DNA of 64,000 nt from Octopus vulgaris (taxonomy: Eukaryota), in the NCBI GenBank assembly GCA_951406725.2, contig OX597825.1, forward strand, positions 43,586,001 through 43,650,000, in the 5' to 3' direction. The notes beneath the pieces are model-generated. The model ran no database searches. It saw only the letters and a list, made by a program, of their open reading frames with translations, and was not told the DNA's origin. Shown here piece by piece: positions 61,218 through 62,412 of this stretch. The position numbers were made by a program, and so were the translations under genes. How positions within the stretch are numbered: the first letter of the stretch is position 1; each line of letters begins with the position of its first letter.

Positions 61218-61605
61218 TATATACACACACTCATACACACACGCGCACTTTATATATATATATAATATAAATTATATATAAATATATGCATATATGCATA
61301 CATATATGTACATACCTACATATATATGTATATATACATGCATATATAGGTACAGAACATCAAAAAAACCTTGAAGACAATGAGGAATGATAACATAAAA
61401 ACAAAAACTTTTTTCTAACAACGAAAAGACAAACAGAGAAATGAGACATACAACATAAGGAACTCATTAGAAATAGCAGCTAAAAAAAACTTTTTTAAAA
61501 CTATTTCTAATACTTAAAGAAAATCTCTCTCATATAGTGTTTTCTCAATTCAACTCACGAAAGTATGGGGGTAAAGACATTAAAAAATCAAATGCAAAGG
61601 TTATT

Positions 61606-61657
61606 TGAGAACGTACGTTTCTAGATTAGTCAAATCGACATTTCTTTCGTCAGCTCA
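61606..61657 (-). ncRNA. Type I hammerhead ribozyme with canonical CTGACGA core
   Basis: tgag-CTGACGA-a-aga..gtc-gattt-gac..tct-a-GAAA-cgtacg-TT-ctca: palindromic stem III, cleavage triplet GUU. Confidence 0.75.
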
Positions 61658-62017
61658 GAATTCCTTGGTTCGGATTTGGAAACACTGAAAGTGGGAGCAT
61701 ACCCTTTCGGCTTCTTATCGCTTCTGAAGATCTGCTCGAACTATCAGTGCCAGCAAATTCAAAATATGCAAGCGAAGAATTTCTGCTCTCCCCCTTCCAC
61801 CAGCGTGGGTTAAAATCAGTAAACACCATGTTTTATCGGTAAAATCGAGAGAGATGAATTATAATTTCAACAATTGAGGGTAAAATTAATTAATTATTAA
61901 TCAATTTCACCAAGTATTCAGTATGCAAAGGGACCATTTAAGGCGAATTCAAATTATTACGAAGCCGAAAGGGTATGCTCCCACTTTCAGTGTTTCCAAA
62001 TCCGAACCAAGGAATTC

Positions 62018-62069
62018 TGAGCCGACGAAAGAAATGTCGATTTGACTAATCTAGAAACGTACGTTCTCA
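62018..62069 (+). ncRNA. Hammerhead ribozyme, CCGACGA variant of the 61606 copy
   Basis: tgag-CCGACGA...GAAA-cgtacg-TT-ctca. Confidence 0.7.
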
Positions 62070-62357
62070 AATAACCTTTGCATTTGATTTTTTAATGTCT
62101 TTACCCCCATACTTTCGTGAGTTGAATTGAGAAAACACTATATGAATGAGATTTTCTTTAAGTATTAGAAATAGTTTTAAAAAAGTTTTTTTTAGCTGCT
62201 ATTTCTAATGAGTTCAGTATGTGGCAAAGTAATTTATTTTACTAAGCCCTTTTATATAATGTAATAATTTGAATTCGCCTTAAATGGTCCCTTTGCATAC
62301 TGAATACTTGGTGAAATTGATTAATAATTAATTAATTTTACCCTCAATTGTTGAAAT

Positions 62358-62412
<55 letters not shown>

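Follow-up and report, generated by a model that had tools for sequence, protein, structure and literature searches.

An ORF-less hammerhead repeat of Octopus vulgaris, probably a non-LTR retrozyme, with two-armed insertions and Penelope-style ends

Within the 64,000 nt of Octopus vulgaris DNA analysed here (assembly GCA_951406725.2, contig OX597825.1, positions 43,586,001 to 43,650,000; hereafter the window), two overlapping parts of one non-coding repeat lie head to head, each with a hammerhead motif. This raises the question of what kind of element the repeat is and how a single locus came to hold two opposed copies of it. We consider it probable that the feature is one insertion of an ORF-less hammerhead family, likely a non-LTR retrozyme that was copied in trans by the enzyme of a Penelope-like element (PLE) from one, probably circular, RNA.

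The long-end arm (61961 to 62361, plus strand) comprises segments A, B and C, or unit positions 1 to 401, ends at what we call the long site and runs into a (TA)n/(TG)n/(TATG)n tract at 62362 to 62446, the likely target. The second arm (61460 to 61960, minus strand) comprises segments C, D and A, or unit positions 301 to 561 followed by 1 to 255, and stops short of the usual short site. Both meet at 61960/61961 in a blunt junction without microhomology. Segment comparison confirmed this ABC/CDA anatomy of the first-pass annotation to the base, with A, B, C and D adding up to 546 nt: A (61961-62215) differed from the reverse complement of 61460-61714 at 3 of 255 nt (62023, 62146 and 62147), and C (62261-62361) was identical to its inverted copy (61860-61960) over 101 nt. 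ABC and CDA, described at first as windows on one loop, are the two arms of one insertion, but the left boundary at 61460 is accidental. The right arm has its long end at 62361, and the left arm stops at about unit position 255, where a 3-nt microhomology links it to the 3' end of a repeat that is older and unrelated (a 3' fragment on the minus strand, 61240-61462, left limit approximate) and shows 79-88% identity to its other copies over 115 nt.

An exact search with a 23-mer from the hammerhead gave 1,999 matches in the 2.8-Gb genome and none for the reversed control. The first 100 matches, all on C1, were grouped into 44 consecutive loci, all of which were examined; these loci were chosen by motif and not by structure. 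Extrapolation (1,999 matches at 44 loci per 100 matches) gives about 900 loci genome-wide. The proposed loop order A-B-C-D was borne out by natural arrays of up to about 14 units, repeated head to tail in this order. A unit of about 546 nt describes the lineage of the window copy, in which D of the minus arm carries a 14-nt deletion also found in one other locus, but the usual unit of the family is 560 nt. Among 65 measured periods (range 527-564 nt), 22 were 560 nt and 10 were 544-546 nt, the latter a subfamily with a 17-nt deletion at the D/A border, distinct from that of the window. Arms reached 3.4 kb in the 44-locus sample and 7.6 kb in a locus picked separately, L195 (G000:C3:97076500-97086499), and variants in long arrays were mostly confined to single units. 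The array in L195 contained about 14 units with 99.5% identity, in which six variants were common to non-adjacent units; its second arm was short and unusually divergent (20 differences).

The unit has a GC content of 33% and, as originally observed, no ORF: sense frames that start with ATG reach at most 18 aa in a natural stretch of two units (L027:1762-2882). A 92-aa ATG-started frame was found there on the antisense strand of the unit, but is probably not kept, because other subfamilies have single-base indels. No ORF for a reverse transcriptase (RT) or a GIY-YIG endonuclease was found in the unit or joined to it. By its sequence features, the repeat, a young and dispersed family, is likely a non-LTR retrozyme.

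Segment A contains a single type I hammerhead motif, consistent with the one hammerhead per loop first noted, a call that we base on a pairing descriptor and on covariation. The minimal type I hammerhead of the minus arm (61606-61657, minus strand, predicted cut after 61610) has a canonical core, read from 61653 downwards, and a palindromic stem III of the dimer type. In the plus arm (62018-62069, plus strand, predicted cut after 62065) U4 is changed to C at 62023. This change need not be fatal, because C also occupies position 4 of the hammerhead in the inspected copies of H1, a PLE of the same genome described below. The layout comprises a stem I of four pairs, the core, a stem II in two parts and a short, self-complementary stem III with a co-fold energy of -13.0 kcal/mol, a form thought to act as a dimer (PMC4209133). 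Rfam gave no match at gathering score in the whole window and no hammerhead match at E<=5 in 61400-63400.

Across four families, 130 of 130 hammerhead cells were paired, a fraction inflated by the choice of these hammerheads with the pairing descriptor, and 4 of 13 pairs had changed on both sides. The core was intact in 43 of 44 loci, which partly reflects the motif-based choice of loci. Within the family, hammerhead columns outside the search motif held 8 changes against a median of 45 in random columns, a marginal difference (p 0.055), and position 10.1/11.1 was mostly mismatched (U-U or A-A in 101 of 107 cells). Predicted linear and circular folds did not contain the hammerhead in its active form. 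Judged from the sequences, hammerhead activity is uncertain, because conservation within the family is marginal and 10.1/11.1 is usually a mismatch.

The ends of the copies were far more regular than their lengths. Among the 44 sampled loci 34 were two-armed and head to head, and in every one of these unit position 401-402 formed the end of one arm, while the other arm ended within 277-310 (mostly 298-310), a combination of one long and one short end with p 6e-11 if ends were independent. Outer ends adjoined (TA)n in 66 of 68 cases, although the TA repeats blur their exact base; both ends lie within (TA)n, which would hide a target-site duplication, a feature that in retrozymes exceeds 4 bp when present. 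The 10 other loci had TA at the 5' side in 8 cases, an N gap in one and other sequence in one. Since the outer ends are fixed at two sites and only the inner ends vary, the copies are no free permutations of the unit, which modifies the circular permutation initially proposed. The long-end arm always held 98 nt missing from the terminal unit of the short-end arm. This stretch between the two end sites is the Penelope 'tail', which in the window occupies 62263-62361 (plus strand, modal short site to long site) and includes an extended AT-rich hairpin (62310-62342). Of another 23 two-armed loci, selected by similarity, 18 fitted the end rule and none was long/long or short/short; the other 5, window copy included, had one end off both sites as parsed. 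The footprint corresponds to that of PLEs in its 5' truncation, partial tandems, inverted copy, single tail and AT-rich target.

Inner ends were uniform over the unit (KS p 0.56) and fell near the predicted cut site in 2 of 68 cases, against 2.4 expected. Most arms (59 of 68) crossed this site, 37 of 68 were longer than one unit, and within a locus arm lengths showed no correlation (rho -0.15). By alignment overlap, 21 of the 34 junctions overlapped by 1-26 nt, 4 were flush and 9 contained extra bases. Arms of one locus were 0-2.5% apart, compared with medians of 2-11% to other loci, and the partner arm was closer than any other locus in 23 of 35 cases; in this comparison L161 was left out (overlap below the limit after trimming) and L188 represents two separate insertions. 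Furthermore, 23 locus-private substitutions were present in both arms. On the basis of these alignments both arms are copies of one sequence variant; gene conversion after insertion could have contributed to their identity.

We propose that transcripts of a tandem copy would be cleaved into monomers by hammerheads acting as dimers and then circularised. A PLE dimer would bind the folded end module and nick the two strands of a (TA)n tract, and cDNA synthesis would be primed from both nicks, starting at the long site (about 396-401) from one and at the short site (about 298-310) from the other. Synthesis by each enzyme would extend over a random length, at times for several rounds of the template, and the two cDNA ends would then be joined, often at short microhomologies. 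The first-pass annotation had placed a template switch at 61960/61961, but this blunt head-to-head join is better read as the meeting point of two primings. We favour double priming on a single circular or multimeric template because the arms share private variants, have independent lengths and cross the cut site. A cut linear monomer was excluded as template by the 59 of 68 arms that cross the cut, and under classic twin priming on a single linear RNA the long arm would have its inner end near the short site, whereas inner ends were uniform. Since the arms continue through the cut site, the template would be a circle or an uncut multimer, and we favour the circle because arrays are long and homogeneous, because the fold unites the cut ends in a rod and because known animal retrozymes are circular. 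As far as it can be judged from sequence, the earlier proposal is supported in that it describes a retrozyme-like element that is non-autonomous, bears a hammerhead but no ORF and was inserted in Penelope style from a circular or multimeric template.

The end sites lie in a module with its own conserved structure. A nine-pair helix (62213-62221 with 62296-62304, plus strand) encloses the short end site (about 62258-62270) and covaried across 13 sequences; in the end module 4 of 21 pairs had changed on both sides. Another candidate fold, in which the two end sites pair with each other, was lost in the 13-sequence consensus. Directly next to the target tract lies a two-armed copy of a sister family (62447-63317; minus arm 63155-62447, plus arm from 63155; period 563) with a hammerhead at 62804-62738 on the minus strand and 65% identity to the window family over 215 nt around both end sites. 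This neighbour family is older, its best other copies being 82-93% alike, and its hammerhead has a canonical pair at the stem II base and a covarying stem I. A search with the end-module pattern gave 1,454 further matches (control 0) and at least four further families, so that at least five sister families possess the module; members with tandem copies have periods of about 545-570 nt. Several sister families showed the same two ends, and units of different families were 60-75% alike.

The family unit was predicted to fold more stably than shuffled sequences both in linear form (z -6.0, 100 shuffles) and as a circle (z -8.9, 62% paired, 12 shuffles). Five units folded as circles gave z -5.8 to -9.9 and four controls +2.2 to -2.3 (12 shuffles each). 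The hammerhead strand of the five units folded better than the opposite strand, and the predicted fold brings both cut ends into one rod. More tentatively, and with odds that we place somewhat against it, there might be at least six 560-nt viroid-like RNA circles under selection for a dimer-type hammerhead, a unit-closing rod and a module with two start sites, with a PLE dimer priming both target strands on one circle, one subunit per site. If true, the strict one-tail rule would be a general explanation of inverted Penelope pseudo-LTRs (pLTRs) and their tails, and the 200-nt module would represent a portable cis signal for PLE insertion that is read by shape and not by kinship to the enzyme's own RNA.

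The alternative that survives best, though we consider it unlikely, is two-site PLE priming on the linear, uncut multimeric transcript of a genomic array, with no part for hammerhead or circle in insertion. Hammerhead mutants left insertion of an Anolis PLE in vitro unchanged, with uncut RNA as the main substrate (PMC11167929). Arrays of 2-14 units exist as possible sources, inner ends do not pile up and deletions do not occur at the cut site; copying of a mixed array could also give the six variants common to non-adjacent units of L195. However, an additional step would be needed for arrays to outgrow their source, and arms do reach the multi-kilobase lengths given above with mostly single-unit variants. 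Moreover, the hammerhead and the unit-closing rod are kept across families of such low similarity, and known animal retrozymes accumulate as circles (PMC7229834).

Clearly less probable is a single priming followed by a template switch or fold-back, on new cDNA or antisense RNA, which would make the inverted arm as has been proposed for rotifer Penelope elements, with self-priming on an antisense template suggested in PMC3846280. The near-identity of the arms agrees with this, as do the 5 of 34 loci (0.67 expected) in which the inner ends lie within 5 nt of each other and form near-perfect palindromes. Fold-back onto its own cDNA requires one arm to lie within the other, but the short-end arm fitted inside the long-end arm in 17 of 34 loci only, and neither the extra 98 nt of the long-end arm nor the uncorrelated arm lengths are expected; the window junction also has neither palindrome nor microhomology. 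Fold-back may be the source of the five near-palindromic loci, but not of the half with a too-long short arm.

Very improbable, and largely refuted within the sample, is the reading as ordinary pLTR fragments of an autonomous PLE or as a satellite grown locally by unequal crossing-over: although Xenopus retrozymes are close to pLTRs with local amplification offered as an explanation (bioRxiv 10.64898/2026.07.22.740005), and a parent may have been missed as three PLE families were compared, successive 560-nt units follow one another without an intervening ORF, neither an arm joined to a Hydra-type ORF nor a blastx match to the Hydra-type proteins was found, and the copies are scattered, have new PLE-type ends of their own and form arrays that start and stop mid-unit. 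Likewise, copies were not always attached to a PLE ORF, the outcome that the first-pass annotation had named as speaking against itself, as inner ends join each other in 34 of 44 loci.

Public sequencing runs were also considered. Contigs of four runs that we guessed to be RNA covered the unit in 29-30 of 30 bins and contained unit-end-to-start joints, which tandem DNA gives as well. Three of the four runs were without cover on a low-copy control flank, yet a neighbouring transposase relic was covered about like the unit when scaled to a large run whose kind is not on record. Contigs of runs under two organism labels covered the unit. An RNA-editing footprint was not detected, A>G not being in excess over T>C in four classes (p 0.10-0.49). 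In 80 loci, private changes shared by all pieces of a locus comprised, on the hammerhead strand and in one class, 7 G>A and 0 C>T, which are small numbers (p 0.016, one of eight tests).

The preferred reading, two primings on one probably circular RNA, calls for a PLE enzyme, and the same genome encodes three intact candidates. One, of 781 aa and located in TA repeats, belongs to a family that we take to be Neptune-type, judging by its motifs. One locus of this family (L291, G000:C16:33680700-33689700) holds an intact two-ORF element with a hammerhead-like motif of a U3-A8 core variant, and its TA flank (5832-6254) contains a further two-armed, module-like palindrome. The other two, H1 (717 aa) and H2 (727 aa, 45% identity to H1), are intact Hydra-type PLEs that also sit in TA repeats, and their translations contain the Hydra motifs RWK, DKT and CxCX5C of PMC8557442. 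Pfam gave no family for H1 or for part of H2.

One long and one short end were likewise found in these PLEs, in 11 of 11 H1 and 4 of 4 H2 loci with both ends visible. Their tails measure 71 nt (H1), 72 nt (H2) and about 48 nt (Neptune-type) compared with 98 nt in the retrozyme, and the end module had no detectable shared sequence with the ends of the three PLE families compared. Apparent unit matches in loci of these families proved to be separate insertions in the flanks. A tblastn search with Hydra-type proteins found no Hydra-type ORF joined to an arm in the loci examined, and blastx of two units against 121 Hydra-type proteins gave no match. Hydra-like fragments near some copies (L016, L169, L171, L193, L199 and L210) were separated from the arms. 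The H2 hammerhead shares with the retrozyme a mismatch at the stem II base, a weak pointer to a Hydra-type partner. We regard a Hydra-type PLE as the most likely candidate partner.

Further elements were observed in and next to the window. At 6891-8920, or 6891-8849 in a narrower delimitation, lies a very young, two-armed, 5'-truncated H1 copy with arms 99.5% alike and a 71-nt tail on the right arm. Directly beside it, an H2-like copy at 4607-6862 (41% to H1 over 354 aa) ends in (TA)n; the 3' region of this copy is long, and a hammerhead lies at 6794. Just past the right end of the window are a decayed Hydra-like ORF on the minus strand (L200:417-3112) and an H2 copy with a 5' pLTR on the plus strand (L200:4448-5995). 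The region 55400-60130 contains LINE-type ORF fragments on the minus strand and three tandem copies of 680-710 nt of the element's end, each followed by (ATT)n; we presume a resemblance to Dong/R4-type, microsatellite-targeted elements. A decayed element with inverted ends about 70-83% alike occupies 60378-61223 and is, judging from its translation, presumably mariner-like.

The first-pass annotation did not recognise the family as described. No published description was found of this family, of a retrozyme with such a footprint or of a one-tail count in a search of the article literature, although supplements, Repbase and Dfam may name the unit otherwise; the main text of an octopus repeat-annotation paper (PMC13282606), as distinct from its library and supplements, mentions no retrozymes or ribozymes in the part available. 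The class, non-LTR retrozymes, has already been described, and the octopus repeat is a new family within it. Like animal non-LTR retrozymes (PMC7229834; bioRxiv 10.64898/2026.07.22.740005) it consists of tandem, non-coding, highly self-paired units of low GC with one type I hammerhead each and occurs as monomers, dimers and multimers in one genome, and PLEs have been proposed as mobilisers of those retrozymes. Its unit of 560 nt compares with the 150-450 bp typical of retrozymes (51-972 in the preprint). Unlike described retrozymes it has a hammerhead of the PLE-minimal type with the 10.1/11.1 mismatch and no pLTR parent that we could find. The two inverted arms of its insertions, their PLE tail and their preference for TA targets are features that the available text of those descriptions does not mention. 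In the Xenopus preprint 8 of 9 predicted elements failed to cleave (bioRxiv 10.64898/2026.07.22.740005).

EN+ PLEs of the Hydra clade (PMC8557442) share with the octopus retrozyme the 5'-truncated partial tandems, the inverted second copy, the tail at one end, the (TA)n targets and a hammerhead upstream of the ends. The retrozyme differs from them in having no RT-endonuclease ORF, no shared sequence and a tail of 98 nt instead of 30-40 bp. Chlamys PLEs such as MRC1 (PMC8557442) are likewise non-coding PLE dependants with multicopy head-to-tail insertions, but their 3' end resembles that of autonomous partners and most are without hammerheads. In Poseidon PAc of Anolis (PMC11167929) two internal RT start sites also bound the tail, targets are AT-rich, and the enzyme, a predicted dimer, cleaves and extends the two target strands. 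PAc, however, is autonomous and, in the available text, shows no start-site difference between strands, whereas the octopus retrozyme had one of each in 34 of 34 loci.

The tail on one of two inverted pLTRs has been described as optional for PLEs (PMC3846280; PMC8557442), and the PLE mechanism is called undefined in PMC8557442. Because its unit is short and has no ORF, the octopus retrozyme constrains this mechanism: every insertion with two arms draws on both start sites, once each, its arms carry one variant, and arm lengths are independent. This provides a sharp in vitro prediction for which the three intact enzymes of the same genome are candidates. Mobilisation of retrozymes by PLEs had been proposed from shared hammerheads, co-occurrence and pLTR kinship (PMC7229834; bioRxiv 10.64898/2026.07.22.740005); the octopus family itself bears the PLE insertion footprint, and its end rule ties retrozymes to PLE insertion.
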